From IMG/VR virus record IMGVR_UViG_3300025138_000031: DNA of 64,000 bases; one strand, written 5' to 3'. The stretch is from an uncultured virus (IMG/VR IMGVR_UViG_3300025138_000031). Its lineage: Duplodnaviria > Heunggongvirae > Uroviricota > Caudoviricetes. Within the stretch, counting starts at the first letter, position 1. Every line of letters begins with the position of its first letter. This document shows positions 2,356 through 62,357 of this stretch, piece after piece. The notes under the pieces were generated by a model. The model had not been told where the DNA came from. It saw only the letters and a program-made list of their open reading frames with translations, and did not search any database. A program made the translations under genes and the position numbers.

Positions 2356-2381
2356 TATATTGGTTATCTAGTAGAAAATTA

Positions 2382-2389
2382 GTATATTA
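2382..2389 (+). promoter_or_regulatory. Recurring GTATATTA putative promoter motif
   Basis: Same motif recurs in intergenic gaps at 4110, 13592, 31811 and 60316, with a variant at 17842. Confidence 0.5.
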
Positions 2390-2483
2390 TTATAGTAACA
2401 AGGATGTTACGCACAGAGTAAACTGTTTAAATCTTTTTTTATAACTAGTGGGGGTAATGGTCCTCACACAAATTTTATTTATT

Positions 2484-7825: not shown

Positions 7826-7840
7826 TCAATGCTAAAAAAT

Positions 7841-7882
7841 ATAAAGGGAGTTGTGTCTATTAGTTTACTCAACTCCCTTTAT
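7841..7882. terminator. Hairpin / possible bidirectional terminator
   Basis: 13-bp perfect inverted repeat ATAAAGGGAGTTG / CAACTCCCTTTAT with a 16-nt loop. Confidence 0.7.
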
Positions 7883-7916
7883 TATAATTTTATTATCTTA
7901 GCAAACAAAATATAGA

Positions 7917-12725: not shown

Positions 12726-12739
12726 TAAATAAAATAATT

Positions 12740-34507: not shown

Positions 34508-34509
34508 CT

Positions 34510-37356: not shown

Positions 37357-37380
37357 ACTTAAAGAGTTTATTTATTACAT

Positions 37381-37411
37381 TTTGTAAACTTATTAAATTA
37401 TATTAATTTTG
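37381..37411 (+). promoter_or_regulatory. Bacteroidota sigma70-type promoter (predicted leaderless transcript)
   Basis: TTTG (37381-37384), 19-nt spacer, TAATTTTG (37404-37411); ATG follows at 37416. Confidence 0.65.
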
Positions 37412-37415
37412 AACT

Positions 37416-40400: not shown

Positions 40401-40673
40401 GCTGAATTTGAAATGCCAGAAGGATTATCTCCTACTGGTAAATACAGAGTAATTAAAGCAGGAAATAATCAATATAACTTACATTATTCTATTAACACAT
40501 ATGTACCTGGTGGCTCTTATGTTACAAAAACAGAAACACAACCTATTGATATGCAGTATGGATTAAGAGGTTTAGATAAACGTATTTCTAGTTTTAATCA
40601 ATTTTTAGTAACCAAAAGAGAACAAAATAGATTAGCTAGGGAAAAAGATAATGCTGAAAACGGCCAAAAATAA
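37416..40673 (+). CDS. Cargo/ejection protein (1085 aa)
   Basis: Helical, PFTPDY N-terminus, no Cys; directly upstream of the virion RNAP. Confidence 0.55.
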   Translation: MATYIKGADTYLPDIKPFTPDYKFLSAVLQTKTDKYDANFKATNELYNKVVYADLSRMDNKDKRDQYASTIAPAIEKISGMDLSLQQNADNAKGVFAPFYEDDLIVKDIVYTSNYRNEQKKAQRFLDMGTEKAVDRYSARGVKSLQYQMDDFINADADKALAMKYPKYVQNVNLYKMSEQILGEMDPPLKMKMDQFSEDGNFIITNQNGALITGAALQVLQQTLQKDPRVQAAYADDAFVASRDFAAGGMQAGQFSSVEEGQDAWATETIARINERNEQAIVDGLEQQAAQININTNWENYQGQNGIVPGSDMEKALEEQMSIAEATQAALDAKMNIRREGQLPTDNLDGNLNKAYRMLMGANIQTDLVNAAVSYGARDQEHTFRVNERKLVDDKFRYDMAKIRANAENDMALAKYKADREEDLAEKKGELGGLNNPLGNALTDARVIFGDGATIDGATDEDGALDPNTDLIVRTNEQYVTEDNKVFNSQLEDSLAMMQLLNPTGDNSSQDQTYGVKLQDGTDYRGTIEQIRKKLSGQNEVDPNAKVSESGTGGGPSIYSQRNAVQNLFTGLSTKFKDTRQRTLDDPSLTMGSDKRNQYDALYGRIFGANGTINKQAGLDQYMQTALQNHRDVYEVTSRQLLESDGGGSIYKQMSDAGFPPIMNEDNTLMTYEDYQELVVKGIESGNITNPDLGNWTWDTGTSNEDYMIQEEETIYYEYGATTEKVYNEDGSPKMIIDMSAVKDEAQRYYDEQRNRLNIGLTSGDFASGDLYATAYGRSDAKGVDVVMSPTYEYMLNPLSPNPAAEAEMVQLIQQLNVLDNAGNKYGVIQGDLDASREFFGLEFDDVGSYLQNDATALKAWNLYKEDLNTWYNNPKRSNTDKIAPVATIQYMPVGGKSDDPNKENAIYRVNFGPEWLASKKVGSNSASGTSVEFGALTTEEINSLSGASGASDGVQGTAGISFIVPHEFDNNTKSQKNLYYSNIETAILANGNGYAEFEMPEGLSPTGKYRVIKAGNNQYNLHYSINTYVPGGSYVTKTETQPIDMQYGLRGLDKRISSFNQFLVTKREQNRLAREKDNAENGQK

Positions 40674-46600: not shown

Positions 46601-49600
46601 AAATGCACGTGAAGAAAATGTATATAAATATTTAGAGTCTAAAATAGAACTTTTAGTTTTAAATCAAGGAGGAAGAGGTAGTAAAGCAGAAGCAACTGAG
46701 GTTTTGGAAAGCCCTTTACAAAGAGCTAAGCAAGAACTAGATGTATATAAAGAAGAGCTACTTGCAGGTGTACTTTTTAAAGATCACGCTAAGACATTAA
46801 AGAATAGTAAAGAGTATCAAAGGTTAGTGAAGAACTATAAGCAGCTTGCAAAAATTGCTAACAAACTTTTAAAACCTAGTCTAACACCATTAGAGGTTGA
46901 AGAGATAAATACATTTATAGATTGGGCTAGAGTTAATTTACCTGATTACATTTCTGTTGAGACTTTAGAAAATCTAAGAGATAACTTCCAGAGTAATAAT
47001 GAGCGTGTAGGTGCATTTATGCTAAATATGAGTGGTATAGGAAATGGTGTACAAGGAACTATATTTACAAAAGCTTTATCTCCATTTAAATACCATGAAG
47101 CTTTTCATGGTGTGTTTAGAATGCTACTATCTCAAGAAGAAATAGTTAAGTTCCGTAACATAGCAAGAAAAGAAGTAAGAGCAAAACTTAGAGCAGAAGG
47201 AAAAAGCTTTAAGAAAGAATTAGGAATATTTAGAAACTCAGCTAGTACCTATACTAACATGAGTGAGAAGGAATTAGAAAATGAATATTATGAGGAATAT
47301 CTTGCAGATGAATTTGAGAAGTTTAAGATGGATCCCAAAAGTTCTAATGTGGATGCTGAAGTTAAGTCTTTCTTCACTAGACTTATGGAATGGCTCAAAT
47401 CTCTATTCAATAATGTTGCACAAGATGAGCTTCAAACCTTATTTAAGAATATTGATACAGGAAAATATCAACAAGCTCAAGTAGCTAAGAATGAGTTTAC
47501 TGCTGCTATGAATGCAGGACCAATTGTAGCTAATGCATTATTGCCTTATAGTAATGAACAAGTAGAAGATGTATCAGGAAATATAAGAACAGGTACTCTT
47601 TATTTAAACAGTGACATATCTAACCCATTAATTGGTAGTATGGCAGCAATGTTTTTAAATAGAGTTAGTGAAATAAAAGGTGCATATAACCCAGCATCTG
47701 TTTTAGAAGTTTTGATGGGTGACTTTCAAAATTTATATCATCCACTAAATCCAGCTAATGAATCTTTAACAGAAGAACAACTTGCTGAATTAAGCATTAT
47801 ACAAGATTCATTTAATATTTATCCTGAAGAAATAACTAAAGCTGTTGTGTCTCAATTAAACACAATAGGAACACAAGTAGAGAATGAACAATTTACTTTA
47901 GATGAATTTGAAGATTCTAGTGGAGTTAGAACAACTTCTCAATATGATAAAGATGCTTCATTGATTGGAGGTTTTAATTCTTTAAGTTCATTTATAAGAG
48001 GTTTTATAGCAACAACAAATCTAGTTGCTGATGATCAAGGTCTTGTCATGGATTTGTATGGTAATACAGAACTTGAAAGTAGTGATGAAAACATTGGTAC
48101 TAAACCACTTATTATTCCGGTAGATGCACAGTATGCTTACAATGCCTTACTAAAGGCTGTTAAAAATACAGAGGACACTAAACAAATTTTAGAACAGATG
48201 TATGCTTTTGGGGTAGATAACCCACATGCAGGTGCTGTAGTAACTAGAATATTAAATAGAGCAGGTATTAGTCCTGAGACATTATTAAGTAAAGATCCTT
48301 TACCAGTTAATTTTGTAATGAAAGATCCAGGATTTTTACAGTCAATAATTAAAGGTTTCCAAAATTATAGAGTAAATTATATATTTAATGAAAGAGATGA
48401 ATATGGTAATATTAGAATATATTCTGCTGCACAAAGAGATGATATTAATGCACAACTAGATAAATGGAATCAAGCATTCATAAGCAAGAAGAAAAGATTT
48501 AATAATGAAAAAGTACAGAACCAAATAGAAGAACTACTTAATGGTTTAAATGATTTATTAACGTCCCAGAAAAAAATAACAAATAAAGCATTATCTGAAA
48601 AGGCTTCTAAATATTCTCTAGATTTATTTAACCTAGTAGGAATAAAACTTAGCCCATTGTATATACGCTTTAGTGCATTAAAGAGCAAACCAACATCTGT
48701 ACTAAATGTATCTCAAGCTAGTCTTGTTAGAAATAATATTGATCAATTAAGTATAAATGAAATAGGTCTTAATCAAACTAGCAAAACAGTTAATGAGTAT
48801 GTTACAACTATAGAAGAGCTTAGGCTTGGTATACAACGTAATGCAAATATTTTTAGTACAGGCAATGATGGTATAGCTTCTAGATTATATGAGCTATCTC
48901 AAAACAATGCAGCATTTGATGAGACAGTAGGTGCTTCAGTATTTAAAAACCCTAATGGTGATTTAGTATTTGCACATCAGTTGCCTACTTATCATTTAAA
49001 ACAAGTTAAGGCATTAAATAATATTAGTACACTAGATAGTTTAAAAGCTACTGATCCATACTTAACTAATAATTACTTACTAAATAGTGCAGCATTTAGA
49101 AACATGTCTAACAAACAAAAGCTGCAGATTTCTAGAATAGCTGGAAGTAAGATTGGTCAAGAATTAAATTCTGAGGCAGATTTAAATGAATTTATAAGTG
49201 GTATTAAGTCTACTCAAACATATGGTGAGTTTACTCCTCAAGAGTTTGCGGTTACAATGATTAATAATTACACTGCATTCTTTAATACAAAAAGTAATAA
49301 AGTAGACAGAGTCTTAGATGCAGAAGGTAATGAAGTAGGGATAGCCCCTATTCTTGTTAGAGTAATGGAAGCTTCTAATACAGGAGACATGCTTGGACTA
49401 CCTGTTATTAAAGCAGTTGAGACAGTAAATGGTGAAGTTAAAATAACTGATACAGCTATTGATATTGTTGTTAATGAAATTGCTACAGAGTTTTCTAGAA
49501 TAAACAGAGAAGCACAACAACTAAATGATGCAGGCAGACAATTAATTAAAGGATACAATGTTAATGAAAATGGAAGAGCCTTTAAAATCAACAACAATAA

Positions 49601-52600
49601 ACTTGCTCTTTCTGAAGAATTAAGAACAAGACTAGAGAGAGTTGCTATTGAACAAGGTAAAGAAGGTAATACAATTACATTACAAAATGCTTTATCTGCA
49701 GCAGACACAAGTATTGGTGCATTAAAAGCAGACATTAGTAAAAGTTTAGAAATTCAGTTTGATGAATTTCAAGACACATTAGATGAACTAAATGTAAGGG
49801 ATCAGTTCTCTAAATATATTAAAGATGGATTAGCTGTTGGACAAGGGGTAGCTAGAAAAGAAACATTAAAATCAGCTAGACTTCTTAATTTAAATTATTT
49901 AGAAGAACACAACCTAAAACAAATATTTATTAATGATTATATTAATACATTATCTATAAATCAAGTTTTATTAGGAGATGAAGCTATGTCTTTAAAGGAT
50001 CCTATTGATCAGGTTAAAAGGGCTAAGATGCAAAATGCAGCATACTATAGTGCATATAGTTCTTTCTCTGCACCTTTACTGGGAGTAGATCACAATGTAG
50101 AAGATATTTCTTTAATTACTTTTGAAGAACCAAAAGGTCAATCAGCTATTACAGGAGAAGATATAGATAGAGCTGATGCCCAAATGTATATAACTACTAA
50201 AGCATTTAGATACATGTGGTTTGGTTTTGGTAAACTTACAAAAGCACAAGCAGAACTAATTGATGCTATTGAGAGTGGTCAGACTTTGCCATTAGGAACT
50301 TATGATCTAGCAAATCAATTGTTTGGTAATGAACAATCTCCAATAGGACTAGTAGATCAACAGGCTATGTTGAATTCTAAGAAACTAGTTTATGGAGATG
50401 GTAAGACATTTTTAAAGATGTCTGCATTTGTGTTGACACCACAATATACTTCAACATTAGATGATCAAGGCAAGTGGGTTGCTAAACCAAATAGAATTGA
50501 GCTACATAATTTAAGAGTTAAACTAGAAGCTATAGAGAACAAAGAAGGTGCACAAACACTTGGTATTGCTGCTCCTGAATCTGCTTCTAAGATGATGAAG
50601 CAAAACATCAATAACATAGAACAACTAGGTAATACAAGAGAATTTACTGAGGAAGTAACAAACCTAGATGCTAGAATGATGGGGTTACAAGTTCTTAATC
50701 CTAGTAATAAACTAGATATAATTGATCCTACACAGATTAAAGAGATATTAACATCTGAACAAGATGATAGTGTTTATGTTGCTGCTTTGGATATGACAAT
50801 TGGAGAAATTAGATCAGCATACAACCAGGCTGTGTCACAAAGAGTTGAGCTTAAATTTAAAGATAGAAGAAACTTAATATTTACTTTAGGGACATCTTAC
50901 GATGAATTAGCTGTATCTAAAGAACAAGGAAAACTTACACCTAATCTTCAAGCATTTTTAAATTATGCAGTTAATAGTTTAAAAGCTTCTCAATCATCAG
51001 AGACCTTATTAGATTTCTTTTCATCAACAGATGGTGTACAGAATTATGATTTAAACAACCCTGTAACAGTAAAGAAATTTGAACAACTATTCTTAAGCTA
51101 CTTTAGTAAGGGTACATTATCAGAACGTGCTCCAGGAGTTTCATTAACTTTGGTTTCTGATTTTGGAAATAAAGTATACAGAAGAGTATATGAAGTAGAT
51201 GCAAACGGAGTACCAGTAAGATCTGAAGTAATTAGAGAAAATGTTTTTGAAAAAAATCCAGAAGCTTTAGTTGAATTAGATTCATTAGTAGAAGGTGATC
51301 ACAATGGTGTGGTAGTACTAGATAGATTAAGAACTGGTTTAATGGGATATACTGATCCTAAAGACAAGTCTACAGCTACAGGAGAAAGATATTCAGAAAT
51401 GATAATGCCAGCTCACTATAAAGATATTATGACTTTAGTTGAAGAGGGTACAATGGAAATGCCTGAAGCTATAAGTAAAATGTTTGCTGTAAGAATACCT
51501 ACACAAGATAATCATTCTGCTATGGCTGTAAGAATGGTTGACTTTATGCCAGCTTATTATGGATCTACTGCAATGTTTTCTCAAGAACTAATAGAAATAT
51601 CAGGTGCAGATTTTGATATAGATAAAGTTTTTGCATTAATTAAAGAGTTTTACGTAAAAGATAATAAGTTTGTAGAGTATAGCCAAGAAGGAAGTTATGA
51701 TGAATACTTCAGATATGTAAGTGAAAGAGTTCTTAAGTCTGGAAATATATATGCAGAAGCAGCTAATTTATGGGTTGATGAACAATCAGAATCCAAAACT
51801 CCTATAACTCTAGCAGAAGAAAACAATGTTACAGATGCAGGTTTAAGTGAAAGGGGTTTACAAGCACTAAAAGTATTAGGTCTTCCTATTACTAAAGCAC
51901 AATACAAACTGTATGTTGCAAAATTTGGTGTTCCTTATGCAGCTCCACTTAACAATAAACTTGTAGATCTTAAGTATGCATTGGTATCTAATACCGGTGT
52001 GACGGAAAGTGAATCAGGAGTTCCTATTTCTTATCAATCAGCTAACCAACAGATAATCACAGATGTGTTAACTGAGTTAGCAAATGAGTCAGATTATTTT
52101 AAGAAAAAAGTAGAAGAAAATGTATCAGATATTAATAATTTAAATGGTAAGATACTTGCTTTTAAAGCTAATAAGGGTGCATCAATTGGTGCATTTGTAT
52201 TGCCTAATTTATATTTAAGTTTATTGACTGAATATAAATCTGAATTGAAATCACCAATTACAGTTAACGGTAAGCCTTATTCTAAATATGGTGTTACAGT
52301 AATGGAGAATGGTGATAGAAAGCAAGATGTTAATTCTTCTTTAGTTACCATGGCAACAGATAATGCTAAAGACCGTAATGTTGGTAAGCTTGGTTTAAAT
52401 AGAAATGCATCAGCTGTATTAATGAATATGGTTGCATTAGGTATTCCACTTAAGACTGCCGTGTTATTAATAAATGTACCAAAAGTTCAAGAGCTTTATA
52501 CAGCAGCTATAAACAAAACAGATATGTTTGATGCTGGTATTATTGCTTTAGTAAAAGCTGAATTAAGTGAGTCAGAACAAAAAGGACAAACTGGTTTGAT

Positions 52601-54416
52601 TACAGATGAAATACTATTAGATGCAATCAATAATGACAACACAGAAAGTGAAAAACAAATTTTACAACTATTCTTACAAGTTTTAAACCTTACTGCATTT
52701 ACTGGAAACATGGGTGCCATTACTGGACTTACTAAAGGTTTAGGTAAAAGTATAGTAGATATAAATACTAAAGCTGAAAGTATAGAAAAGTTAATGGATC
52801 CTAAAGCTCTTATTGACTTGTCTAAAATTTATAAGGGTAAGACATTCCAAAACACATACTTAAAAATATTTTATCAAATCAAAGAAAAACTTTTGCCTGC
52901 AACATTCTTAACTGCAAGTGCTGATTTTAGCATATTAGCTGATGAAGTATTTAAAGAGATGAATACAAATGATCTATCATTTACAGAAGAAACAAAAGAA
53001 AAAGTAAGATTAGATCTATTATCTTATTTGACAATTAAGGCATATGATAATCATATGATGAATAATAATAGTAGAAAAGTTGCTACATTAAATAACCAAA
53101 TACTATATCCATCACGTGATAGTGAATCTATTGTAGATGTAACACAAAGATTATTTGATTGGGCAGAAATTAATGATCCAAATAATTTCTTTATTATGAA
53201 CTTTCTGGACATTACTAAGGCTGATAACATTGACAATACAACTGGTTTAAATTTAGCTATGGCTAATACATTTAGACAAATTAGTTCTGCTCAAAAATTA
53301 GACCTTGTAAATGACTTTAATAAACTATACACCAATGTACAAACTAAAGATGATGCACAAGCAATAGTAAACTACATAATGGTTAAAGATGGATTACAGT
53401 TAGGATATGGTTCTTTACTATCTGCAATTGCACCACAAGTATTAAATGATTACTTAGATCAAGTTGACTCAGTAAGAAAAACATTAGAAGGTGAAGTAAC
53501 GTTTGGAACTACATTTAATTCTACGCAAGAAGAATTAATAGAAGAGTTTAAAGATGGGTATTTAACTTCTAACATAACAGGACCATTGTTACCTAACTTA
53601 GTACGAAGTGAGATTAAAAAGTTACCTAAACCGGTTACATTAAAAGGTGATAAGCTTACTATCAAATTTAAAGATGAGAGTAGTATTAAGAATTATATAA
53701 GAATTTCAAATGTTTCAGAGCTTGGAGGAGCAACATATAAAACATATAAAGCAAATCCAGAACAAGAAGGCTTAACAATTGAATATTCTGAGGTTCCAAC
53801 TTATGGGTCAAATCAACAAACAGCTATAGGTTTTATGTTTAATACTCCAGAATTTAGTAGACCAACCTATGCTGAAAATAGAGAGTATGTAAAGAATAAA
53901 AATAATCAAACTTCAGAGGAAAGTAAAATGGATAAGATGGAATTTGGTTTGTCAGAAGCTGCCGCTATACAGCAAGATGTATTAAATGACACAACTAATA
54001 ATATAGTTGCTACAGACAAAAGTGTAGAAGCTAATGGTATAAATATGGCTGATACAGATGCTTTGATGAAAAACATTTTAGAAAAAAGTGCTGCAATAGA
54101 AAATATAGAGTCTGAAATTAATACTCTAGAAGATACAGAAAATGCATTACCAACAATAGATGTAAATGAACAAGGGCAATATGCAATGTTTGCAGAAGAT
54201 ATACTTGGAGAAGCATCACAGTTTCCTTTATTGTCTGAAGGTTATGCTAACATTATGAGTAATCCATCTAACAAAAGTATTATGATGGAAAATAAATTAT
54301 TTCCTTTTAGTAATATGATTAGTGAATATAATGATAACTTTGTTAAAGAAAAGGAAACAGAACAAGAAAACCAAGAAGCTTTTTTAGATCAACTAAAATG
54401 TCTAGGTATAAAATAA
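40680..54416 (+). CDS. Giant virion RNA polymerase polyprotein (N-terminal ejection region, zincin protease, two-barrel RNAP)
   Basis: GADFDIDK at 51609-51626 (the DFDID catalytic motif of crAss-like virion RNAPs such as phi14:2 gp66), RIPTQ, TDNAK; HEAFH plus EEYLAD zincin at about 47094; hydrophobic Gly/Ala segments and EGVQEVSQ near the N-terminus. Confidence 0.92.
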   Translation: MENQNDTNLKDQSLASTIQETQRPTASVVPPGQDFIPVTEMFENAYTRIADINAIDPSIISGVNRYRNELDEYGIPALASLGVARPSLATGKFDPVAQQNPPANDFSKIQQILNEDVSEGPADDIAAPRFVNMRSSQFDRYFNNRKFDDLGFTPYSNTEEYYNQNSDVYDDMSRMWGQYTSLAGSGFSSVYRSIGDFFDGDNYAYAPDISTAMEFEDAMRVGNSSRDGGMAWTNNLLLNSAYTMGIIGSIAVEELALFAAAGVQGFLNPASDAVLLARTGANIKRLAVEGARVFNVFRGLEAGRDIYKTLKSAEAAKDFWSAAKTGGRVLGNAFAPNTVYALKNFKTAQNATQNGINIAKAASTFGGFYRDVRAINLALAESKLEGGMVYNQLVRDGIRIHEAKTGRPVTPDQMAKIESAASKGSFYTTMANAPIIYASNWFVLGNAMGGFNRTLSRVFNDSYRRGFKSIVQTGATRNAKGVLNKNVFENVGANLGGTWKKVKAGGWKGLVGSGGAAMLRYAAANIAEGVQEVSQEAVSAATTGYYNEVMKDPLAGGMELRNTMIANGIGSQLSSEGFSVFMSGFLMGGVVQLPQKMFFQGVPSIYKYGANQAASGLGMDGGVFGTKGQNEAWAEYKEQRDEFLADILEQHNTVWNNQIDDPTSLFDETKFNFFMQKQMADGMKAANGQDMFAFKDEQDASKFQQMYTIFQHGTSQIYRDQLTDMLKLTNEELYEAYSGSAGVKKSDIKNGKIRERLTNMVEAIDKQEQNYLDDVAKFPQPFDPSKFKKGTPEFTQEVLSANAWNHARFLYMFTKDGFTQALERSNKIYSLLENEPIFAKMEAKDLTVLLSAESIDAEIKMLKAEKQVFQDSDQAPQTKQIAEKAERIAKLEAIKAILTDPKYTTKSDGKRKGTFDRRNIKKLSPAFAAYVKYLAGTQDSFVSEENINKALIDIVDHIALKERAKVYDKAIEYLGNPERFGEIFNRQLEYNKQYFSKVKENFEKQLKKYVSIQEANQLMSEFLALNPSVFFDPEETKMFLETNDIKYLKTAYTETSQVSGIDSDGAFVIYDKILHEQIKQKLRTYAGIQEDVFEQPETKPKTESDLSNEAAADVEDTLGNMGIDVVLDQPNNTPMLNALLKKEYRKYQATASIMGDPVISFDRWRDSQEGVNLQNGFNALKKIWAAGKMSNNPSTQEIEYISPLSSEQVISEKGFEQWALSRDTQESPQVRRVLDQLGLKLSDIFVNVDAVGDKGSTIPGDANRKVIEKGSTAALIKIDTVDVNSGDRVSQYKITDLNGNNLSKELLNFLDQKNQVHRFGTFTTLGKALAAYKIIEATAPDTSIFPFDGVEGLNQGMLVYKDNEPFIILSNPGEAANGYLKIIPAALNTPNKKELKSNTITLQPGQFKGVYTKQDLDTTKFNANVARIDVNEPITPYKAVNKGEDSGSFGEAEARYNLIVSMLSADELANLEFVISVPENSGEVSERPFSITGKDGVQYLSPNPLVKLVKSKYQIGIRIKDAAINSRLMDALLKVGLKPNTNEGNFFAFLNNQYVVMEDLQGKPVDPRSMSESQMLNTIYPGGVQNMSNKELLNLVHNNFALNALIVSELDELGLTTESGEVSFINGFGKFGLKVDGGRVAYPEKGQQISRPVNDLLYNDSDGNGGILIYDFKYDPDLGKRTVQTVTNLEGDAQSKLRADVKQGLGDRYNDMITGSDRYYVIIKLPNGTYAPVNLKSRKKTLVEVTSLYTRIISRAQDTLKDNKKGDVLFNEKFNEETNNELFISNKPGYIIDLEVSPFGQPQLILKKKLGKDNFEEKARIEISKDVVRDAKLGSTKEMQTLLDDFNKDEAVRAEGVKLSPANFRESFPDGAPVETILEKSRTNVLPNVVEQQKLRVTGDDAAIQASKDVAFISPLKPDEVKPLENPTNEELGDDGINGISDELFDEQLEREFEEYSNQTLQPIVNKILRGLELNAREENVYKYLESKIELLVLNQGGRGSKAEATEVLESPLQRAKQELDVYKEELLAGVLFKDHAKTLKNSKEYQRLVKNYKQLAKIANKLLKPSLTPLEVEEINTFIDWARVNLPDYISVETLENLRDNFQSNNERVGAFMLNMSGIGNGVQGTIFTKALSPFKYHEAFHGVFRMLLSQEEIVKFRNIARKEVRAKLRAEGKSFKKELGIFRNSASTYTNMSEKELENEYYEEYLADEFEKFKMDPKSSNVDAEVKSFFTRLMEWLKSLFNNVAQDELQTLFKNIDTGKYQQAQVAKNEFTAAMNAGPIVANALLPYSNEQVEDVSGNIRTGTLYLNSDISNPLIGSMAAMFLNRVSEIKGAYNPASVLEVLMGDFQNLYHPLNPANESLTEEQLAELSIIQDSFNIYPEEITKAVVSQLNTIGTQVENEQFTLDEFEDSSGVRTTSQYDKDASLIGGFNSLSSFIRGFIATTNLVADDQGLVMDLYGNTELESSDENIGTKPLIIPVDAQYAYNALLKAVKNTEDTKQILEQMYAFGVDNPHAGAVVTRILNRAGISPETLLSKDPLPVNFVMKDPGFLQSIIKGFQNYRVNYIFNERDEYGNIRIYSAAQRDDINAQLDKWNQAFISKKKRFNNEKVQNQIEELLNGLNDLLTSQKKITNKALSEKASKYSLDLFNLVGIKLSPLYIRFSALKSKPTSVLNVSQASLVRNNIDQLSINEIGLNQTSKTVNEYVTTIEELRLGIQRNANIFSTGNDGIASRLYELSQNNAAFDETVGASVFKNPNGDLVFAHQLPTYHLKQVKALNNISTLDSLKATDPYLTNNYLLNSAAFRNMSNKQKLQISRIAGSKIGQELNSEADLNEFISGIKSTQTYGEFTPQEFAVTMINNYTAFFNTKSNKVDRVLDAEGNEVGIAPILVRVMEASNTGDMLGLPVIKAVETVNGEVKITDTAIDIVVNEIATEFSRINREAQQLNDAGRQLIKGYNVNENGRAFKINNNKLALSEELRTRLERVAIEQGKEGNTITLQNALSAADTSIGALKADISKSLEIQFDEFQDTLDELNVRDQFSKYIKDGLAVGQGVARKETLKSARLLNLNYLEEHNLKQIFINDYINTLSINQVLLGDEAMSLKDPIDQVKRAKMQNAAYYSAYSSFSAPLLGVDHNVEDISLITFEEPKGQSAITGEDIDRADAQMYITTKAFRYMWFGFGKLTKAQAELIDAIESGQTLPLGTYDLANQLFGNEQSPIGLVDQQAMLNSKKLVYGDGKTFLKMSAFVLTPQYTSTLDDQGKWVAKPNRIELHNLRVKLEAIENKEGAQTLGIAAPESASKMMKQNINNIEQLGNTREFTEEVTNLDARMMGLQVLNPSNKLDIIDPTQIKEILTSEQDDSVYVAALDMTIGEIRSAYNQAVSQRVELKFKDRRNLIFTLGTSYDELAVSKEQGKLTPNLQAFLNYAVNSLKASQSSETLLDFFSSTDGVQNYDLNNPVTVKKFEQLFLSYFSKGTLSERAPGVSLTLVSDFGNKVYRRVYEVDANGVPVRSEVIRENVFEKNPEALVELDSLVEGDHNGVVVLDRLRTGLMGYTDPKDKSTATGERYSEMIMPAHYKDIMTLVEEGTMEMPEAISKMFAVRIPTQDNHSAMAVRMVDFMPAYYGSTAMFSQELIEISGADFDIDKVFALIKEFYVKDNKFVEYSQEGSYDEYFRYVSERVLKSGNIYAEAANLWVDEQSESKTPITLAEENNVTDAGLSERGLQALKVLGLPITKAQYKLYVAKFGVPYAAPLNNKLVDLKYALVSNTGVTESESGVPISYQSANQQIITDVLTELANESDYFKKKVEENVSDINNLNGKILAFKANKGASIGAFVLPNLYLSLLTEYKSELKSPITVNGKPYSKYGVTVMENGDRKQDVNSSLVTMATDNAKDRNVGKLGLNRNASAVLMNMVALGIPLKTAVLLINVPKVQELYTAAINKTDMFDAGIIALVKAELSESEQKGQTGLITDEILLDAINNDNTESEKQILQLFLQVLNLTAFTGNMGAITGLTKGLGKSIVDINTKAESIEKLMDPKALIDLSKIYKGKTFQNTYLKIFYQIKEKLLPATFLTASADFSILADEVFKEMNTNDLSFTEETKEKVRLDLLSYLTIKAYDNHMMNNNSRKVATLNNQILYPSRDSESIVDVTQRLFDWAEINDPNNFFIMNFLDITKADNIDNTTGLNLAMANTFRQISSAQKLDLVNDFNKLYTNVQTKDDAQAIVNYIMVKDGLQLGYGSLLSAIAPQVLNDYLDQVDSVRKTLEGEVTFGTTFNSTQEELIEEFKDGYLTSNITGPLLPNLVRSEIKKLPKPVTLKGDKLTIKFKDESSIKNYIRISNVSELGGATYKTYKANPEQEGLTIEYSEVPTYGSNQQTAIGFMFNTPEFSRPTYAENREYVKNKNNQTSEESKMDKMEFGLSEAAAIQQDVLNDTTNNIVATDKSVEANGINMADTDALMKNILEKSAAIENIESEINTLEDTENALPTIDVNEQGQYAMFAEDILGEASQFPLLSEGYANIMSNPSNKSIMMENKLFPFSNMISEYNDNFVKEKETEQENQEAFLDQLKCLGIK

Positions 54417-54424
54417 TATAAGTT

Positions 54425-57400
54425 ATGGCAAGATGTCCAAATAAAAATACTGCAGAGTATAAAGCATTACAAGATGTATTTCAAACAGAAATAAGAACTA
54501 ATAGTGTTATAAATACTTGGCAAGACATTAATAACTCAGATGCATTTCCTACACCTTTTCAGGCTAATGAGATGGTGTCTGATCAGAAAGTTGCTTTTGC
54601 TTTAAAACAAAAATCATTTGGATTAAGTTTATTAGATAACTTACGTAGAGAACATATAGGTCATACATTCCAGGGACAATTTTTAATTAATAATTCTAAC
54701 CCAGTTACAAGAGAATATGACTCAATGTTTTTAGATGCTAATGTTAAAAAACTATATAGATATTTAAGAATAAACAATATACCTGCTGACACAGTTACAT
54801 TACAAAGAACACCAAAGACATATAGACTAATTGTAAATGAGGATTTATTTACTAATAAAGATGTACTTGAAAAGTCTAGGTCATGGGATACTAATAGGTC
54901 TAGAGAGGTTGTTATGCACCTAAAAAGAATGTTTCCACAAGTTAATGTAGAAATGTTGAGTGTTACTGAAGCTGCAGATATGTTTTCTATGTTTCCAGAA
55001 TGGAAGAAGAGTAATGTTAAATTTAAAGATGTAAAATCTTTTTATGTAGACGGTACAGCATACTTAATAAAAGGTAGAGTAACTGATGAGACAGCAATAG
55101 AAGAAATGCTACACCCTTTAGTAGATGCAATCAAAGTAGACAACCCTGAATTATTTAATGGTTTGTTAGCAGAGGCCAGCAAGACTTTTCCAGAAATGGT
55201 TCAGCAGATAAAAGCTGAGTATAATGAGAATACCAGAAACTTTAGTGATACTGAAAGAAATCTAGAAATAGTAACACAAGCCTTATCAAGACACTTTAAG
55301 AAAGAATATGAAACTAATCCTAGCCAAGGATTCCTAGACAAAGTAAATGAGTTTATGGATTGGTTTATGGAACTTATAAATAACCTTAGTGAGTATTTAA
55401 CAGGTACACCTTTATCTGTAAAAGATATAAACCCAAGTGGTAACTTAAGTGATATTGCTAAACTTTTAAATACAGAAAGAATACAATTTAAACTGGAGAG
55501 TAGAGCTGATGGAAAGATAAGGTTTAGTTTATCTCCAGAAAAGAAAAGACAGGTTGATCAAGCCTTGTCTGAAGCTAATGGGGTACAAGCAGAAATAATA
55601 AAAAGTTTATTTCATGTAGCCAACTCATCAGATGTTGAAGTTAATTCATTGTCTGGTAGCAGATTTAAAACTGAAGAGGAAATGCAAAGAGGAGACTCAG
55701 GAGAAACCATTGTTGTTTTAAATGAGAAGAATCACACATACTATGATATAACAGATAAGCTTCAGCAGAAACCATATACCTCAGTTACTACAGCAATCAA
55801 AGGCACTCTTAAAAACTTAGAAGATGTTCAGCTTAATTTAGATATTGGCAATGATGTTGATGCTTTATTAGATGCTTTGGTAACACACCGTAGTGTAGAG
55901 GATGTATTTGATCAAATGAAAGTTGTAGATCTAGAGACTGCTAAAACTGTTTATAATACATTACAAACTACACTAACTAATATAATGCCTGAAGGATCTA
56001 TTGCTTTATCTCAAGTTGTAGTATTTGACAAAGCAACAAAAATGGCTGGTACAGCTGATTTAGTTATTGTAGATAAAAATGGTTTTATTAAAATTGTAGA
56101 TTTAAAGACTACAAAAAATTCTTTAAAAACCTATACTACAGAAGATACAAAGGTAGGGAGAAAACAAACTGTATATTATGATAAAGAATGGGCACTAAAT
56201 GAGGATAGTTTATTGAAACAAAAAGGAATTGATAAATTATCTACTAGAGGTCAACATAACCTACAAGTAAACATTTATAGAAGGATGTTTCAGAATATGG
56301 GATATGATGTATACATGGGAGACTATGCTGCATCTACTTTTCATTTAGTTGCTGATATAAGTGGGAAAGGCAAGAACCAAAAGTTCAATGGGAATATTAA
56401 GTCTGATCAATGGGTAGATCATCCTATATCTCAGAATATTAATTATGTTAATATGCTTATGCCGCTCAATCCTGATACAACTAAAAAAGAAGAGTTAGAT
56501 GAGCTTACTAAAGATATGGAAAATAAACTGGTTGATCCAGATGTTGTTCCTGCAGATTTAGTAGAAGAAGATGAAAAAACAGCAGAAACGGTTACACCAG
56601 TTCCAGAAGATCCAGTATATGATACTATTTCTGGCATACTTAAAGAATACCAATTATCATTAATAAATAAAATAGATTTACTTGAGGCAAAGAAATTAGC
56701 CAAAGCTTCTATATTTATTGATAGAACAAAAGATGAAGCAATAGAACAATTGGCTTCTACAATTGCTTTTATTAATATAGCAATGAGTGAGGGGCCTATA
56801 GCTAGATCTTCTGCTTATTCAGAATTATTACAAGACTCACTAAGACAAGTTAGAAAGTTTAGTGCCTATGTTCAAGATCCTAAGAACTTTGCTAAATCTG
56901 AATACATTACTTATGTATTAAATTTTGATAAGTTTATAAAAACATTCCAAGGTTTACAAAGCATTACTGATCTAGCACCTTTAAATGCAACGCAAAGATC
57001 TTTAATATTGTCTCTTAAGACAGATCTTAATAAATTAACTGGTGCTGATGGAACACAACAAGGTTTAATAGATGGTGCTATTAATGATTATGTTAAGGAA
57101 ATTATTAGAAACAAATCTAATAGAGCTTATGGTGAAGAAGGAAGCTTCTTTACAGAAGCAAATCTAGAATTGTTGTTAAAAGAAGCCAGAGACATCTCTG
57201 GTACAGATCTTTACACTAGGGATTTGGCTACACAAGGTGATGTTATTTTAGCTTTGATGGATAAAATATATAAGTCTAAAAAACAAGAGCTATTAGATAA
57301 AGTTGCAGAAAGAGAAGGTGTAATTAAAGCAGCAGGTAACCAAGTAATTAAACTTACACCCAATGCAAAACGTAATACAGCATATAATTTTATGTTAGTA

Positions 57401-60262
57401 TATGATGAGAATGGTGAGTTTACAGGTAACTATGTAAAAAAGATTGGTCAACAGTACTATAAAAAGCAGGAAGAACTAAGAGCACCTCTATATGATAATG
57501 ATAATAACCCATATCAATATGAAGAAATTTTAGCATCTGATATAGAAGAGCTTAAAAAAACCAAAGAGGGACGTGCAAAAATAAAATATAATCAAGATCT
57601 TGCAGATGCTAAAGCTGCATTCAGTGCATTCTTTAGAGCTGAAAGAACTACAGATGAACAGTATGATGATGGTGAATACCATACATATACAAAAGAATTT
57701 AAAGATGCAAGAGATAGAGTAGAATACTATGTGCCTGGTAAAGATGGTAGTCCTTTTGGAAATTGGTATAGAAAACCACGTGTTTCTGATGTACAATATG
57801 CAAAGTATGAAGCTAGGTATTTTAAAGTAAATGAGTACACTAAAGCAATAAGAATAGATGGGGTACCTACTGGAGCTGTAGTAGCTGGTCAAACATACCG
57901 TTCACCAAAAGTAAAGTATAGAGTAGCATTAGAAAGAAGTAATCCAGTAGATGGCTTACCTCAAGATATGACTAGTGAACAATATAGAAGCATTATGAAT
58001 CCTAGTGATGCATTAGGAATAGCACAAAAAGAATTCTATGAATTGTTTGTACAGTATTTTGAAAATGAACTTCTAGAAAAGTTACCACAGAATGTTAAAA
58101 ATAACATGCTTGGTAGAGTACCGTTAGTTCAAGGTGCTGCTATTAATACTATGAAAAAGAAGTCATCCTTCTGGAATCAATTGTATGCAAAAACTGTAAG
58201 AAGCAGAACATGGAATATGTTTAATAAAACTTCAACTCAAAAAGGAGTTATGGTAGATCCTGTTACTGGATATATTGTAGATCAGATGCCTATTTTTTAT
58301 ACAGGTAGGCCAAAGATTGATGGTGAGATGGAACAAATAGAAAAGGAAAAACTTGCTATACAAGACCAATATAAAACAGGTAAGAAGCAAGATGGTACTA
58401 CATATACAGAAGATGACTATAATATTGATTTAGCTGGGATTAATGGTAAGTTAGCTAGAATAAGATCAACACCTAGTGTAGGAGAAATTAGTACTGACTT
58501 AGCAACCAGTCTTATTAAGTTTAGTGCAATGGCAGAAAACTTTGAGACAATGGCTACTATTGATGATACTCTTAATGCAATGATGAAAGTTATAGAAAAC
58601 AGACATTATCAACCATCTGAAGGCTCAGGTATAACTTTTATAGATAAAGTAAAAGGTGTAGTTTCAGGAACACCAAAAAGCAAATATGCTAAAAATGAAA
58701 ATACAAAGAAGAGAGCTCAGAAATGGATGAGTCAAGTGTATTATGATAATGAAAATATTACAAAAGGAGCAGGTGATAAAATAGCTGAGGGAATTATTCA
58801 ACTGTCTTCTTTGTCTTATGTAGCCTTTAACCCTTTTGGTAACTTTAATAACTACTTAATTGGTAGAGTCAATAACAATATTGAATTACTAGCAGGTAGG
58901 TTTGTAAGTAGAGATGCACAACTAAGAGCATCAAGAGAGTTTAATAAAAGAGCCTTACCTGATATGGTTTCAAGAACAGGTGCAGCAATGACAGATGCAG
59001 TTGACGTACTTACATTTGGTAAAATACCAGGTTTAAAATCAAGTGAGTATGATCCTAAAAGAGCTAATAGTAAATATGAAGCATTTGTAGATATGTTTAG
59101 GATGATGGATAAGATGTCTGAATTGCGTGAACAGGGAGCAGATACTGCAGAGGGCAAAACTTGGTTTGAAAGAGCAGCTGAATGGGGTTATGTAATGCAA
59201 GATGCAGCAGAATATAATGTACAAACTAAAATGGGTATGGCTGTTTTGATGGATACTACTATGCTTAATCCAGACACTGGGGAAACATTATCTTTATATG
59301 ATGCCTTTATGTATGATGCCAAGTCACACACAAATAAAATTAAAGAAGGTTTTACCAAGATTGTTAAGTTAGATAAAAATAACAAAATAATTAAAGGGAG
59401 TGAGCAAGACTATACTAATGAATTTAGATATGATTTAAGAAATAAAATCAGAGAAATAAATAAACAAATTCATGGTAACTATGCTAGAGAAGATAGGATG
59501 GTTATGCAACAACATACATTAGGTAAACTTGCAGTTCAATTTAAGAAGTGGGTGGCACCTGCTATTAGAGCTAGATACCAAAGAGAATACTTTGATGAGA
59601 ATCTAGGTTGGATGGAAGGTAGATATAGATCTGCTCTTAGCTTTTTAAGATATACAGGTCAACAACTTAGAAAAGGTAATACAGAATTTAATACCTATGG
59701 TAAAGGTTTTATGGAAGCACAAAAAGGATATGATGGAAAAGGTGGAAATGCAGATCAACGTGCACAGAATAAACTATTTGGGTTCTATAGAACAATGGGT
59801 GAGATAGCTATTATGACAAGTGCACTATTAATCAACTCTATATTAAGTGAATTACTAGCGGGAGATGGAGATGATACTGACTTAGAAAGAAGAATGAAGA
59901 ATTTATCTAAGTATCAAGTAAACAGAATTTACAAAGAGATGGTGTTATTTATGCCTTGGATTCCTGATGGAGGTAAGCAAGTATTCCAACAGTTTGGTAA
60001 TCCAGTAGCTGCCACTAGAACTTTTGGTGAGTTATCTGAACTATTAGGAATGACATTAGTAACTGGCTATAAAGGTCTGAGACTCAAAGCAGGAGGTAAA
60101 GAAGAAGATTATTTCTATGGAGATAGTTCAATAGTATATCAGAAAGGTAAAAGAAGAGGTGAACTTAAGTTATACAAAAACTTTAAGGATGTATTTCCTA
60201 TTGTGTATAGTATTCAGAAATGGGAGTCTTATTTAACTAATGATGATTTCTATATAAAATAA
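54425..60262 (+). CDS. Large polyvalent cargo protein with degenerate zincin and PD-(D/E)XK nuclease domain
   Basis: EEMLH (55100-55114) in place of HExxH; AGTADL..IVDLKT..QVNIY (about 56045-56280), RecB/Cas4-like; long helical C-terminal region with a hydrophobic segment. Confidence 0.75.
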   Translation: MARCPNKNTAEYKALQDVFQTEIRTNSVINTWQDINNSDAFPTPFQANEMVSDQKVAFALKQKSFGLSLLDNLRREHIGHTFQGQFLINNSNPVTREYDSMFLDANVKKLYRYLRINNIPADTVTLQRTPKTYRLIVNEDLFTNKDVLEKSRSWDTNRSREVVMHLKRMFPQVNVEMLSVTEAADMFSMFPEWKKSNVKFKDVKSFYVDGTAYLIKGRVTDETAIEEMLHPLVDAIKVDNPELFNGLLAEASKTFPEMVQQIKAEYNENTRNFSDTERNLEIVTQALSRHFKKEYETNPSQGFLDKVNEFMDWFMELINNLSEYLTGTPLSVKDINPSGNLSDIAKLLNTERIQFKLESRADGKIRFSLSPEKKRQVDQALSEANGVQAEIIKSLFHVANSSDVEVNSLSGSRFKTEEEMQRGDSGETIVVLNEKNHTYYDITDKLQQKPYTSVTTAIKGTLKNLEDVQLNLDIGNDVDALLDALVTHRSVEDVFDQMKVVDLETAKTVYNTLQTTLTNIMPEGSIALSQVVVFDKATKMAGTADLVIVDKNGFIKIVDLKTTKNSLKTYTTEDTKVGRKQTVYYDKEWALNEDSLLKQKGIDKLSTRGQHNLQVNIYRRMFQNMGYDVYMGDYAASTFHLVADISGKGKNQKFNGNIKSDQWVDHPISQNINYVNMLMPLNPDTTKKEELDELTKDMENKLVDPDVVPADLVEEDEKTAETVTPVPEDPVYDTISGILKEYQLSLINKIDLLEAKKLAKASIFIDRTKDEAIEQLASTIAFINIAMSEGPIARSSAYSELLQDSLRQVRKFSAYVQDPKNFAKSEYITYVLNFDKFIKTFQGLQSITDLAPLNATQRSLILSLKTDLNKLTGADGTQQGLIDGAINDYVKEIIRNKSNRAYGEEGSFFTEANLELLLKEARDISGTDLYTRDLATQGDVILALMDKIYKSKKQELLDKVAEREGVIKAAGNQVIKLTPNAKRNTAYNFMLVYDENGEFTGNYVKKIGQQYYKKQEELRAPLYDNDNNPYQYEEILASDIEELKKTKEGRAKIKYNQDLADAKAAFSAFFRAERTTDEQYDDGEYHTYTKEFKDARDRVEYYVPGKDGSPFGNWYRKPRVSDVQYAKYEARYFKVNEYTKAIRIDGVPTGAVVAGQTYRSPKVKYRVALERSNPVDGLPQDMTSEQYRSIMNPSDALGIAQKEFYELFVQYFENELLEKLPQNVKNNMLGRVPLVQGAAINTMKKKSSFWNQLYAKTVRSRTWNMFNKTSTQKGVMVDPVTGYIVDQMPIFYTGRPKIDGEMEQIEKEKLAIQDQYKTGKKQDGTTYTEDDYNIDLAGINGKLARIRSTPSVGEISTDLATSLIKFSAMAENFETMATIDDTLNAMMKVIENRHYQPSEGSGITFIDKVKGVVSGTPKSKYAKNENTKKRAQKWMSQVYYDNENITKGAGDKIAEGIIQLSSLSYVAFNPFGNFNNYLIGRVNNNIELLAGRFVSRDAQLRASREFNKRALPDMVSRTGAAMTDAVDVLTFGKIPGLKSSEYDPKRANSKYEAFVDMFRMMDKMSELREQGADTAEGKTWFERAAEWGYVMQDAAEYNVQTKMGMAVLMDTTMLNPDTGETLSLYDAFMYDAKSHTNKIKEGFTKIVKLDKNNKIIKGSEQDYTNEFRYDLRNKIREINKQIHGNYAREDRMVMQQHTLGKLAVQFKKWVAPAIRARYQREYFDENLGWMEGRYRSALSFLRYTGQQLRKGNTEFNTYGKGFMEAQKGYDGKGGNADQRAQNKLFGFYRTMGEIAIMTSALLINSILSELLAGDGDDTDLERRMKNLSKYQVNRIYKEMVLFMPWIPDGGKQVFQQFGNPVAATRTFGELSELLGMTLVTGYKGLRLKAGGKEEDYFYGDSSIVYQKGKRRGELKLYKNFKDVFPIVYSIQKWESYLTNDDFYIK

Positions 60263-60366: not shown

Positions 60367-61638
60367 ATGAAAAAATGTATACATCTGCTGGTCATCTTTA
60401 TTCTATTTTATACACCCCTTCAAGCACAAATAGATACTCTTCCAGAAGATCAAATAATTAAACTTAAAAAAGGTTGGGAAAAAAAACAATTCTTTAAGGG
60501 TCTTTATGAAGACTTTTTAAAGTATGGTACTATATATGGTGCTGGTGATATAAACAACTCTATAGAAGCTGATGAGTCAACTTATTTTGTTAGAACAGGA
60601 GATGGGAATGGTTTATATGATATTCCTGTTGTTGTAGATAATACACCTGAATATCCATTTGATTATAGAATAGGTTTTGGTATTAGAAAACTAGCAAGGT
60701 TTAGTTATGAAAGAAAACCTAGAAACTTTTATGATGGTACTGAAGAGCAGTTAGCATTTAGTGCACCAACATCTGCATTAGCAGGTTTAGAATATCAATT
60801 ACATTGGGAAAAGGAACGTTGGAGAGGGGAAGACTTCAGGAATCATAGGTTCTTTATAAAGCACACAGGCAAACATCACATATTTAAAGTTGAGTCAAGA
60901 GAAGTAGGAAAGATAAACCTAGCTTATGAGTCAGCAGAAGCAAGATTAAGGTTACCTATAGGAGAAAAGTTTAGCATTTCTGCGGGTGCAATCTACCGTA
61001 CTCACTCCCGTGCATATGGTTATAATCCAATTGAGATCTGGTTAAATGAAACAGTGATGTATACTGACCCAAATACAGGTGAACAGTTTGAATATCCAGC
61101 AAACCCTTGGTATACATTAGGATTTGAGTATGGTTATACTGATCATTTTACTACATACACAGATGCTAATACAGGTGAGGAAATGCAAGATTGGATTTGG
61201 AAAGATGAAGATGGAAATATTGTAGCTTATTCTGATATTGACTTTAGAGAAACTATATTTACCCAGCTAATGAACCGCTTTAATAGTGAGGCATTGTCAG
61301 AGATAGATGCATTTGGTGAGATAGCACCAATAGTAGGAATGGATTTTTATCATTATAAAAGAAATTTCTGGTTACATGCATATGCAAATTATATACTACC
61401 ATATCACAGATACTTAAAAGGAGATGAAGTTGTTTCTTATTTAAATAGAAATAACTGGGGTAAAGGAGGTTTGAGAGAAGATTCCAAGCTAGAGCAATGG
61501 GCAGACTATTCTTTTGGTGCTAATTTAGGTTGGAAGATTAATAAAAATTTAGGAGTGTTTGTTGAAGGAGAGTACTCTAAGATGTGGGACAGCCAACTGT
61601 TCCAATCAACAGTAGGATTAAATTATACATTTAAGTAA
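60367..61638 (+). CDS. Secreted outer-membrane beta-barrel-like protein
   Basis: Signal peptide MKK..LQA|Q, alternating aromatic beta-strands, C-terminal QSTVGLNYTFK beta-signal. Confidence 0.7.
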   Translation: MKKCIHLLVIFILFYTPLQAQIDTLPEDQIIKLKKGWEKKQFFKGLYEDFLKYGTIYGAGDINNSIEADESTYFVRTGDGNGLYDIPVVVDNTPEYPFDYRIGFGIRKLARFSYERKPRNFYDGTEEQLAFSAPTSALAGLEYQLHWEKERWRGEDFRNHRFFIKHTGKHHIFKVESREVGKINLAYESAEARLRLPIGEKFSISAGAIYRTHSRAYGYNPIEIWLNETVMYTDPNTGEQFEYPANPWYTLGFEYGYTDHFTTYTDANTGEEMQDWIWKDEDGNIVAYSDIDFRETIFTQLMNRFNSEALSEIDAFGEIAPIVGMDFYHYKRNFWLHAYANYILPYHRYLKGDEVVSYLNRNNWGKGGLREDSKLEQWADYSFGANLGWKINKNLGVFVEGEYSKMWDSQLFQSTVGLNYTFK

Positions 61639-61943: not shown

Positions 61944-62357
61944 ATGAAAAAGGTTTTGTTGTTTATTCTAGCATTGTTTATTACCTCAACTATACAAGGT
62001 CAACAGTGGGTTAGTGATGATAGCTTTACTGATGAAATAAACGGACATTCAGGTGATCAAGATGAAGATATAGTTATTATAGAGTTTTGGGCAGAATTTA
62101 ATAAAGACAATGCTTTTGTAGAGTGGAAGAAGGTAGATGACCTTGACGGTGTAAAATATTTAAGAGCTAACATAGCCCTTTGCCCATCATTAAAAAAAGA
62201 ATTTAGAATTAGAATGGTGCCCACTATATTAATTTTTTCAGGAGGAGACGCATTTATAAAGTTCAAAGCTAAAGCCGGTCTAGACCTCCTATGCCCTGTA
62301 GACTATCCTAGGATGGTCAGAGCAATAGAGGTTGTTAGACGAGAAGCTTCTTACTAG
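61944..62357 (+). CDS. Exported thioredoxin-fold protein lacking CxxC
   Basis: Signal peptide; VIIEFWAEFN at the WCxxC position; IRMVPTILIF cis-Pro motif. Confidence 0.75.
   Translation: MKKVLLFILALFITSTIQGQQWVSDDSFTDEINGHSGDQDEDIVIIEFWAEFNKDNAFVEWKKVDDLDGVKYLRANIALCPSLKKEFRIRMVPTILIFSGGDAFIKFKAKAGLDLLCPVDYPRMVRAIEVVRREASY

Follow-up and report, generated by a model that had tools for sequence, protein, structure and literature searches.

Cysteines at the facing ends of two giant proteins

The 64,000-nt stretch of DNA analysed here (the window; IMG/VR record IMGVR_UViG_3300025138_000031) derives from an uncultured marine crAss-like phage and carries, on its + strand, five consecutive open reading frames (ORFs; 31829-60262) that encode 9448 amino acids (aa) with only two cysteines (Cys) in total. 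The first three ORFs (31829-34507, 892 aa; 34510-37356, 948 aa; 37416-40673, 1085 aa) have no Cys in 2925 aa. The fourth (40680-54416, 4578 aa) encodes a putative virion RNA polymerase whose sole Cys is residue 4574, specified by TGT at 54399-54401 in the context QLKC-LGIK-stop, and the fifth (54425-60262, 1945 aa) encodes what we refer to as the downstream protein, whose sole Cys is residue 4 (TGT at 54434-54436, context MARC-PN). The two genes lie in different frames and are separated by an intergenic spacer of 8 nt (54417-54424) between the polymerase stop and the next start, which measures 3-24 nt in relatives (IMG/VR loci). An in-frame TAA at 54419-54421 means that translation of the second gene can begin no earlier than the ATG at 54425. 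A previous reading of this stretch, made from its letters alone (the sequence-only reading), had placed one Cys at the fifth-last residue of the polymerase and the other at residue 4 of the next protein, and had taken these as the only two in the five ORFs; a residue count agrees with both positions and finds no further Cys.

The same reading proposed that Cys is selected against in these proteins, and the numbers bear this out. Taking the twelve other ORFs of the virion block as the base of expectation (126 Cys in 5604 codons, 2.25%), about 212 Cys would be expected in the five ORFs where 2 are seen, and the Poisson log10 P of two or fewer is -88. The five ORFs contain 157 and 602 TGY triplets in their two alternative frames, so mutational supply is not limiting for Cys. 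Were two Cys placed at random, they would fall within 5 residues on either side of one of the four junctions with a probability of 2e-6. An accompanying statement, that the outer virion proteins are by contrast Cys-rich, stood only in part: it is correct for the ORFs at 4148-4723 (5.8% Cys), 15887-16453 (6.9%), 13650-15869 (2.8%) and 20113-26286 (1.7%), but not for 26288-31777 (2 Cys in 1829 aa), nor for three near-Cys-free + strand ORFs within 5501-13204, namely 5501-7825 (0/774, with a BppL_N baseplate match), 7917-12725 (3/1602) and 12740-13204 (0/154). Because the ORFs within 5501-13204 are also near Cys-free, Cys depletion is not limited to the five ORFs.

BLASTP comparisons relate the two giant proteins to the polymerase module of crAss-like phages, whose parts we name A (crAss001 gp47/phi14:2 gp67), B (gp50/gp66) and C (gp49/gp65). 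By sequence similarity the 4578-aa protein is a fusion of a gp47-like part and a gp50/gp66-like two-barrel RNA polymerase part, with aa 2138-2267 matching crAss001 gp47 2156-2294, near the gp47 C-end (E 5e-6), aa 3570-3659 matching crAss001 gp50 1403-1498 (E 1e-13), and aa 3591-3939 matching phi14:2 gp66 (E 3e-6). The 1945-aa protein is, by the same kind of match, related to gp49/gp65 ('RNA polymerase subunit'), with aa 1343-1751 aligned to crAss001 gp49 804-1190 (E 3e-29) and aa 1671-1927 to phi14:2 gp65 (E 2e-5). On the basis of this map, the window has the three-part module as two polypeptides, gp47+gp50 and then gp49. The DFDID catalytic motif of the two-barrel polymerase lies at aa 3644-3648 (51609-51623, + strand) and is the single D-x-D-x-D found in the protein by motif scan; tblastn with this segment matched crAss-type 'RNA polymerase' genes in 51 phage records, all of them crAss-type among the matches listed. 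A hidden Markov model (HMM) built from the C-terminal 300 aa of 11 gp47-type proteins matched aa 2138-2338 (47091-47693, + strand; profile positions 92-264 of 322, domain E 2.9e-6), a stretch with no Cys, and the fused gp47/gp50 junction would sit shortly downstream of it. PHROGs and Pfam gave no family for either giant protein above threshold, and megablast found no near relative of the window among deposited phages. The three Cys-free ORFs (31829-40673) are probably further ejected cargo, the first of them weakly gp45-like (aa 130-206 against crAss001 gp45 357-436, E 3e-5).

Conservation in relatives and across gene breaks

Joint conservation of the two terminal Cys had been set beforehand as a point on which a link between the proteins could fail. 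A profile scan of IMG/VR gave 59 loci, from which five without the N-terminus of the match were dropped; both Cys are kept in 54 of the 54 loci showing both ends, which comprise 19 distinct end-motif pairs. Six IMG/VR loci at 50-100% identity keep both Cys and have no other Cys in their visible parts. Residues 1-12 of the downstream protein do not vary among those loci, and the codons of MARCPNKNTAEY differ at synonymous sites among relatives of 50-83% identity, so the constraint is on the protein and not on the DNA. A nucleotide-level signal at the junction was rejected on this synonymous variation of the conserved N-terminal codons, and on the case of crAss001, whose gp47 gene lies on the opposite strand to gp50 and yet has facing Cys on both.

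Searches with each protein separately gave the same picture at greater depth. For the downstream protein (query, N-terminal 400 aa; 318 homologues in all), Cys is found at residue 3-5 in 120/120 homologues among the matches listed, and 117 of these have no other Cys; of the three that do, two are truncated gene calls with the extra Cys at their ends, and P0019 has one, at residue 1024. All 99 polymerase homologues, which measure 2789-5724 aa and drop to 27% in C-terminal identity, carry a Cys close to the C-end: it lies 0-4 residues away in 98 and 16 residues away in P0185. In 97 of the 99 there is no other Cys. An exhaustive phmmer search of 1.84 billion representatives returned 419 matches, 147 of them newly listed and 90 of these at least 1500 aa long. 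Among the matches listed, 89 of these 90 distant representatives have a Cys within residues 1-8, 54 contain a single Cys in all, and seven (2386-3957 aa) carry Cys at both ends, like middle pieces. Conserved residues surround both positions, as F-[IL]-[DE]-x-[IL]-K-x-C leading up to the polymerase Cys (alignment A3) and as C-x-N-x-N at the downstream N-end, where Cys4 is invariant in alignments A1 and A4. Co-evolution of the two motifs was also considered, as a C-end KCL[IL] pairs with an N-end CYN in the 54 loci; this looks like a single clade, and we make no claim from it.

We then compared the window with 13 deposited phages, for 14 genomes covering four crAss families and one unclassified cyanophage (homology by BLASTP), and found that the Cys pair tracks the gene break across three split/fusion layouts. 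In the Steigviridae the layout is A / B / C. In crAss001, cr128_1 and phi14:2, part A has a Cys 0-3 residues from its end, B has one at residue 3-5 and another 1-8 from its end, and C has one at residue 3-5; in IAS virus and cr116_1 the positions are 0-1 from the end of A, residue 5 or 3 and 2 or 0 from the end of B, and residue 5 or 6 of C. The cleanest case is phi14:2, with 1 Cys in gp67 (the last residue), 2 in gp66 (residues 3 and 2179 of 2180) and 1 in gp65 (residue 3), all three proteins having been confirmed in virions by mass spectrometry. Intestiviridae and Crevaviridae (cr3_1, cr271_1, Rudgehvirus, crAssphage LMMB, cr127_1) have the layout A / BC, in which A has a Cys 0-1 from its end and the giant protein (4070-4620 aa) starts with M-x-C or M-x-x-C and has no C-terminal Cys. 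In the layout AB / C, found in Suoliviridae cr55_1 and cr4_1 and in the window, the Cys of the giant protein lies 3-4 from the end and that of C at residue 3-5. The unclassified Leptolyngbya phage Lbo-JY46 (PP438436, 8084-20990) has a gp47-like (E 7e-11) protein of 1552 aa whose sole Cys is the last residue, followed by a gp49-like (E 7e-33) protein of 2748 aa whose sole Cys is residue 4, so the crAss-type module extends beyond phages of Bacteroidota.

In all, the 14 genomes contain 19 junctions, with a Cys on 38/38 facing ends (0-8 from the C-end, or residue 3-6) and on 0/28 outer ends (the N-end of the first piece and the C-end of the last). Control ORFs of 150-1199 aa from the same loci have a Cys on 10/238 N-ends and 14/238 C-ends. 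The difference between facing and outer ends has a Fisher P of 3e-19, a value that ignores relatedness and involves three break layouts. To place the fused junctions, HMMs were made from the terminal 300 aa, C-end and N-end, of the split pieces, of which the gp47 C-terminal HMM was significant in the window protein, cr55_1 and cr4_1 and no other junction profile was. There is no Cys at the fused junction of the window protein or of cr55_1. The gp50 C-end and gp49 N-end profiles found nothing significant in the gp50+gp49 fusions, for which the statement 'no Cys at fused junction' is based on rough BLAST offsets. Fused forms of the downstream protein were sought among proteins of 3405-5000 aa and none was found, a weak negative; a full three-piece fusion would exceed that range.

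Part B appears in two pieces in two of the records. In cr116_1 (NC_055882) it looks split into a piece of 2507 aa that ends in Cys and one of 833 aa that has no N-terminal Cys and a stop directly upstream, and the record annotates these exons as two separate proteins. The gap between them (14188-15030), just past the catalytic region, holds two group I intron halves (RF00028, E 4e-6 and 9e-7, each below the gathering score) with a LAGLIDADG homing endonuclease ORF (PF03161, E 9e-25) in between. As a group I intron interrupts B, the C-terminal Cys of the 2507-aa piece, the last of its 10, is read-through into the intron and no protein end; spliced B has Cys at residue 3 and as the last residue. 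In IAS virus (NC_049978), B is split into a 'molybdenum carrier' of 837 aa and an 'RNA polymerase' of 2159 aa within a run of N at ~16990-17040, and this split is probably an artefact of the record.

A candidate end-to-end disulfide and its alternatives

AlphaFold2 was used to model the two facing ends. The last 280 aa of the polymerase (model mb63849c11095) reached a mean predicted local distance difference test (pLDDT) score of 66, with 72-85 over the last 60 residues and a low-confidence linker before a predicted C-terminal helical bundle (aa 4516-4574; 54225-54401, + strand); Cys4574 closes the last helix (aa 4561-4574), with a tail of four residues beyond it. For the downstream protein, the model of the first 330 aa (m89f8c1dbc567, 21-sequence alignment, mean pLDDT 75.5) begins with an N-terminal tail, aa 1-9 (54425-54451, + strand), that contains Cys4 and is predicted to be unstructured, ahead of a helix at 10-19. 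Based on these models, both Cys are predicted at exposed chain ends.

We consider it probable that a tail-to-head disulfide links the polymerase and the downstream protein, and we infer from the distribution of the cysteines that a disulfide in place of a peptide bond is the best reading of the pattern. In the virion, the two thiols would make one inter-chain disulfide that joins the polypeptides tail-to-head into an unbranched thread of ~6500 residues, and because both Cys are at chain ends the joined product would stay linear. Such a thread could move, extended, through the narrow channel of portal and tail, the first protein leading and the second behind it, with the disulfide doing the job that a peptide bond does in relatives with fused pieces. 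The reducing cytoplasm would then open the disulfide and free the subunits. That the bond forms in this phage, orders ejection and is opened by host reduction is likewise what we infer, and the window proteins, which come from an uncultured phage, are putatively packed in the virion and ejected, by similarity and analogy to the systems discussed here.

There is a precedent for such a bond in A4 (Anabaena phage A-4L), a cyanopodophage of the Saffermanviridae. Its cryo-electron microscopy study (PMC12002296) describes a disulfide between Cys1715 of gp27 and Cys5 of gp26, two ejection proteins of the pre-ejectosome; PDB 9K3A contains gp26. The A-4L record gives gp27 as 1717 aa and gp26 as 1114 aa with one Cys each, at 1715 and 5. 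As in the window, the two A4 genes are adjacent and each product has its sole Cys at the end that faces the other, which in A4 means 2 residues before the C-end of gp27 and residue 5 of gp26. A C-terminal helix carries the upstream A4 Cys (PMC12002296), as in our polymerase model. A4 differs in that it has a single pair; crAss-like phages carry one or two, whose positions shift as genes fuse and split. PMC12002296 treats the bond as a stabilising contact and states no general rule, and the term 'RNA polymerase' is absent from it. BLASTP of crAss-type proteins against A4 gp27 and gp26 gave no match at E up to 1e-2, a profile of the downstream N-terminal 330 aa matched no PDB chain at E up to 0.01, and two fold searches with the model of that region had no A4 chain among the 50 matches listed in either.

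Several observations weigh against the disulfide reading. As the crAss-type and A4 proteins share no detectable sequence similarity, the precedent is one of analogy, and in this phage, as in crAss-like phages generally, the tail-to-head bond is a prediction from sequence patterns. Because the 14 genomes share ancestry, the P values treat them as more independent than they are. One distant representative, P0336 (2437 aa), is devoid of Cys, and in cr4_1 a single Cys (2180) lies close to the predicted A/B fused junction. Extra internal Cys occur in some gut phages (10 in the 2507-aa cr116_1 piece, 10 in the 2159-aa IAS piece and 15 in the cr271_1 giant), so the ban on Cys is not absolute. The three Cys-free cargo ORFs of the window lie outside any chain, so chaining is not general to cargo, and in the anoxic habitat of gut crAss phages spontaneous oxidation is less obvious.

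One could alternatively propose that each terminal Cys forms its bond elsewhere, in like-with-like pairs or with a Cys-rich structural protein (portal or inner capsid) that anchors the cargo, which we regard as unlikely. Cargo proteins are present in several copies per crAss001 virion (PMC10172136), window structural proteins are Cys-rich, and end-to-end homodimers would also be unbranched. Against this, the number of C-terminal Cys equals that of N-terminal Cys in 14/14 genomes, and the Cys are always on the ends that face each other in gp47-gp50-gp49 order and never on an outer end. A need for anchoring or for homodimers would not disappear on gene fusion, and the bond seen in A4 is hetero and tail-to-head (PMC12002296).

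A shared metal ion (e.g. Zn) with other ligands, or a non-covalent docking site, would bring the two ends together with no disulfide, and seems quite improbable to us. The conserved residues around both Cys do suggest a specific docking surface, and the A4 C-terminal helix also inserts into a cleft (PMC12002296), but each chain offers a single Cys, which makes no more than two thiolate ligands; His is scarce (0.5-0.8% of either protein), and neither Cys has an apparent conserved His or Asp beside it. Additionally, the Cys is the very last residue in several phages, a poor setting for a metal site, and the only solved example is a disulfide.

It could be asked whether each Cys serves its own protein, whether by signalling packaging or ejection, by being modified or by sensing redox state, with no link between them. 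A 674-aa protein of Lbo-JY46 (1987-4011), whose one Cys is residue 5 and for which no C-terminal partner is evident upstream, is in keeping with such roles. We nonetheless find independent roles very unlikely, since they leave unexplained why Cys occurs only at facing ends and is lost at the fused junction, and since lipobox, CaaX-box and split-intein readings fail on sequence. A lipoprotein lipobox was rejected as the Cys stands at residue 3-6, right after the start, with polar sequence next (MARCPNKNTAEYK) and no hydrophobic signal peptide, and a CaaX prenylation box (Cys four from the C-end) as the tail beyond the Cys is anywhere from 0 to 8 residues long (0-4 in the marine clade). In a split intein, Cys opens an N-intein tens of residues long, and the C-intein has Asn as its last residue, just ahead of the +1 Cys; here only 0-8 residues follow the C-terminal Cys and 2-5 precede the N-terminal Cys, and the residue before the latter is R, K, S, A, T, N, I or Y. 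Chance or composition, with two leftover Cys near the often less constrained termini of Cys-poor proteins, deserves next to no credence given the probability calculated for the window alone, and is refuted by the conservation in 120/120, 98/99 and 54/54 relatives with synonymous changes in neighbouring codons.

The reading of a disulfide in place of a peptide bond can be extended to a broader model, which we put forward tentatively and with somewhat less than even confidence. The polymerase of every crAss-like phage, and of at least one cyanophage that has the module, would be a single thread of ~5,400-7,400 residues, whose pieces evolution could cut and fuse freely because disulfide and peptide bond would be interchangeable. 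It would leave the capsid as one chain, and cytoplasmic reduction would be the switch that separates the pieces and activates an auto-inhibited polymerase.

Relation to known ejected proteins and neighbouring features

N4-type polymerases are single polypeptides of the T7-like single-subunit kind. They have no terminal Cys pair, whereas the window polymerase is of the two-barrel DFDxD kind and comes in pieces, with a Cys pair at each break. The two systems are alike in Cys avoidance, as the giant virion polymerase and ejection proteins of Schitoviridae (N4 gp50-52, DEV gp71-73) are, like those of the window, nearly Cys-free. According to the DEV paper (PMC11445570), N4 gp50 and DEV gp71 are without Cys, Cys suppression was quantified across the Schitoviridae ejection operon, and Cys accounts for 0.00075% of residues in gp71 homologues as opposed to 0.865% proteome-wide; the same paper cites an earlier rationale, the passage through a periplasm with disulfide-forming enzymes.

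In crAss001, gp45, gp46, gp47, gp49 and gp50 are described as cargo that must partly unfold, and disulfides are described in the tail barrel, the hubs and gp57 of the virion (PMC10172136). Mass spectrometry has placed the crAss001 polymerase proteins, like those of phi14:2, in the virion. A word search of the crAss001 paper found no 'cystein', and 'disulfide' only for tail and capsid proteins and not for cargo. The phi14:2 preprint (bioRxiv 10.1101/2020.03.07.982082) reports that the three polymerase proteins are fused in some phages, and a word search of it found no cysteine and no disulfide; the same search of a 2026 N4 paper (PMC13434306) found neither word. crAss001 gp47/gp49/gp50 and phi14:2 gp67/gp66/gp65 (PDB 6VR4) are homologous to the window proteins and follow the same terminal-Cys rule, and they differ in that the parts fused in the 4578-aa protein of the window (gp47+gp50) are separate in both phages. 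Our literature search, which had subscription journals and supplements outside its scope, found no report of a terminal-Cys rule in crAss polymerase proteins.

Cys avoidance in ejected proteins (N4-like) and one tail-to-head disulfide between ejection proteins (A4) were thus already known. What appears to be new for crAss-like phages is that the rule applies to the pieces of a virion polymerase, holds across the order and in a cyanophage, and moves with fission and fusion. To this the window adds a marine clade with a gp47+gp50 fusion, and the apparent exception in cr116_1 is resolved as an intron. The crAss001 structure left the polymerase proteins unresolved and raised the question of how a megadalton cargo is stored, ordered and delivered, and the sequence rule predicts which ends join. 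If true, the disulfide reading would explain why the three proteins are freely fused and split in any combination, would give the order in which proteins exit the particle, and would suggest a redox trigger of early transcription in the most abundant human gut phages and their marine relatives. It would also widen the single observation in A4 to a general principle for ejected proteins. Two-chain protein toxins keep one inter-chain disulfide while they cross a membrane unfolded through a narrow channel, and cytosolic reduction then separates the chains. The likeness is a functional analogy without homology; the toxin bond lies within a loop of a nicked single chain, whereas the phage bond would run end-to-end within a particle.

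Further domains were looked for in both giant proteins. Foldseek with the model of the downstream N-terminal 330 aa gave no match at E <=0.001. VIA-align of aa 151-328 of the 1945-aa protein (54875-55408) gave middling matches to zincin-like domains, the best with a Z of 8.2 and a root-mean-square deviation of 4.3 A over 166 aligned residues, a level that may reflect merely a common arrangement; these matches include Pro-Pro endopeptidases and the channel-docking N-terminal domains of anthrax toxin factors. A sub-threshold PD-(D/E)XK match lies at aa 527-585 of the same protein. Longer relatives of the polymerase (<=5724 aa; P0154, P0155, P0163, P0167, P0183, P0194-P0218) have precomputed Pfam domains that are absent from the window protein (PF08719, PF13532, PF09397, PF18760, PF25176), and these look like effector-type modules riding on the ejected protein.

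The 1829-aa, Cys-poor product of 26288-31777 (+ strand) has a peptidoglycan-binding match (PF01471, aa 1261-1303), and its two Cys are 5 residues apart (1329, 1334). A lone, close internal Cys pair is also seen in the gp45-type cargo of crAss001 (390, 398), in phi14:2 g069 (369, 378) and in a cr271_1 protein (337, 347). Beyond the module, 60367-61638 (+ strand) encodes a protein of 423 aa for which no family was found, with a signal-peptide-like N-end that contains Cys4 and a C-end of ...NYTFK; it is kept directly 3' of the gp49-type gene in relatives (402-423 aa). A protein of 137 aa (61944-62357, + strand) also has a signal-peptide-like N-end, with a weak thioredoxin-fold match just under the cut-off (PF00085, E 1e-4), no CxxC, and Cys at 80 and 117; its gene adjoins a ribonucleotide reductase gene on the opposite strand. 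Finally, the cr4_1 record (NC_055893) annotates at 632-2416 a coding sequence of 594 aa that has an in-frame stop at codon 8 under table 11, which may be a case of stop-codon recoding.

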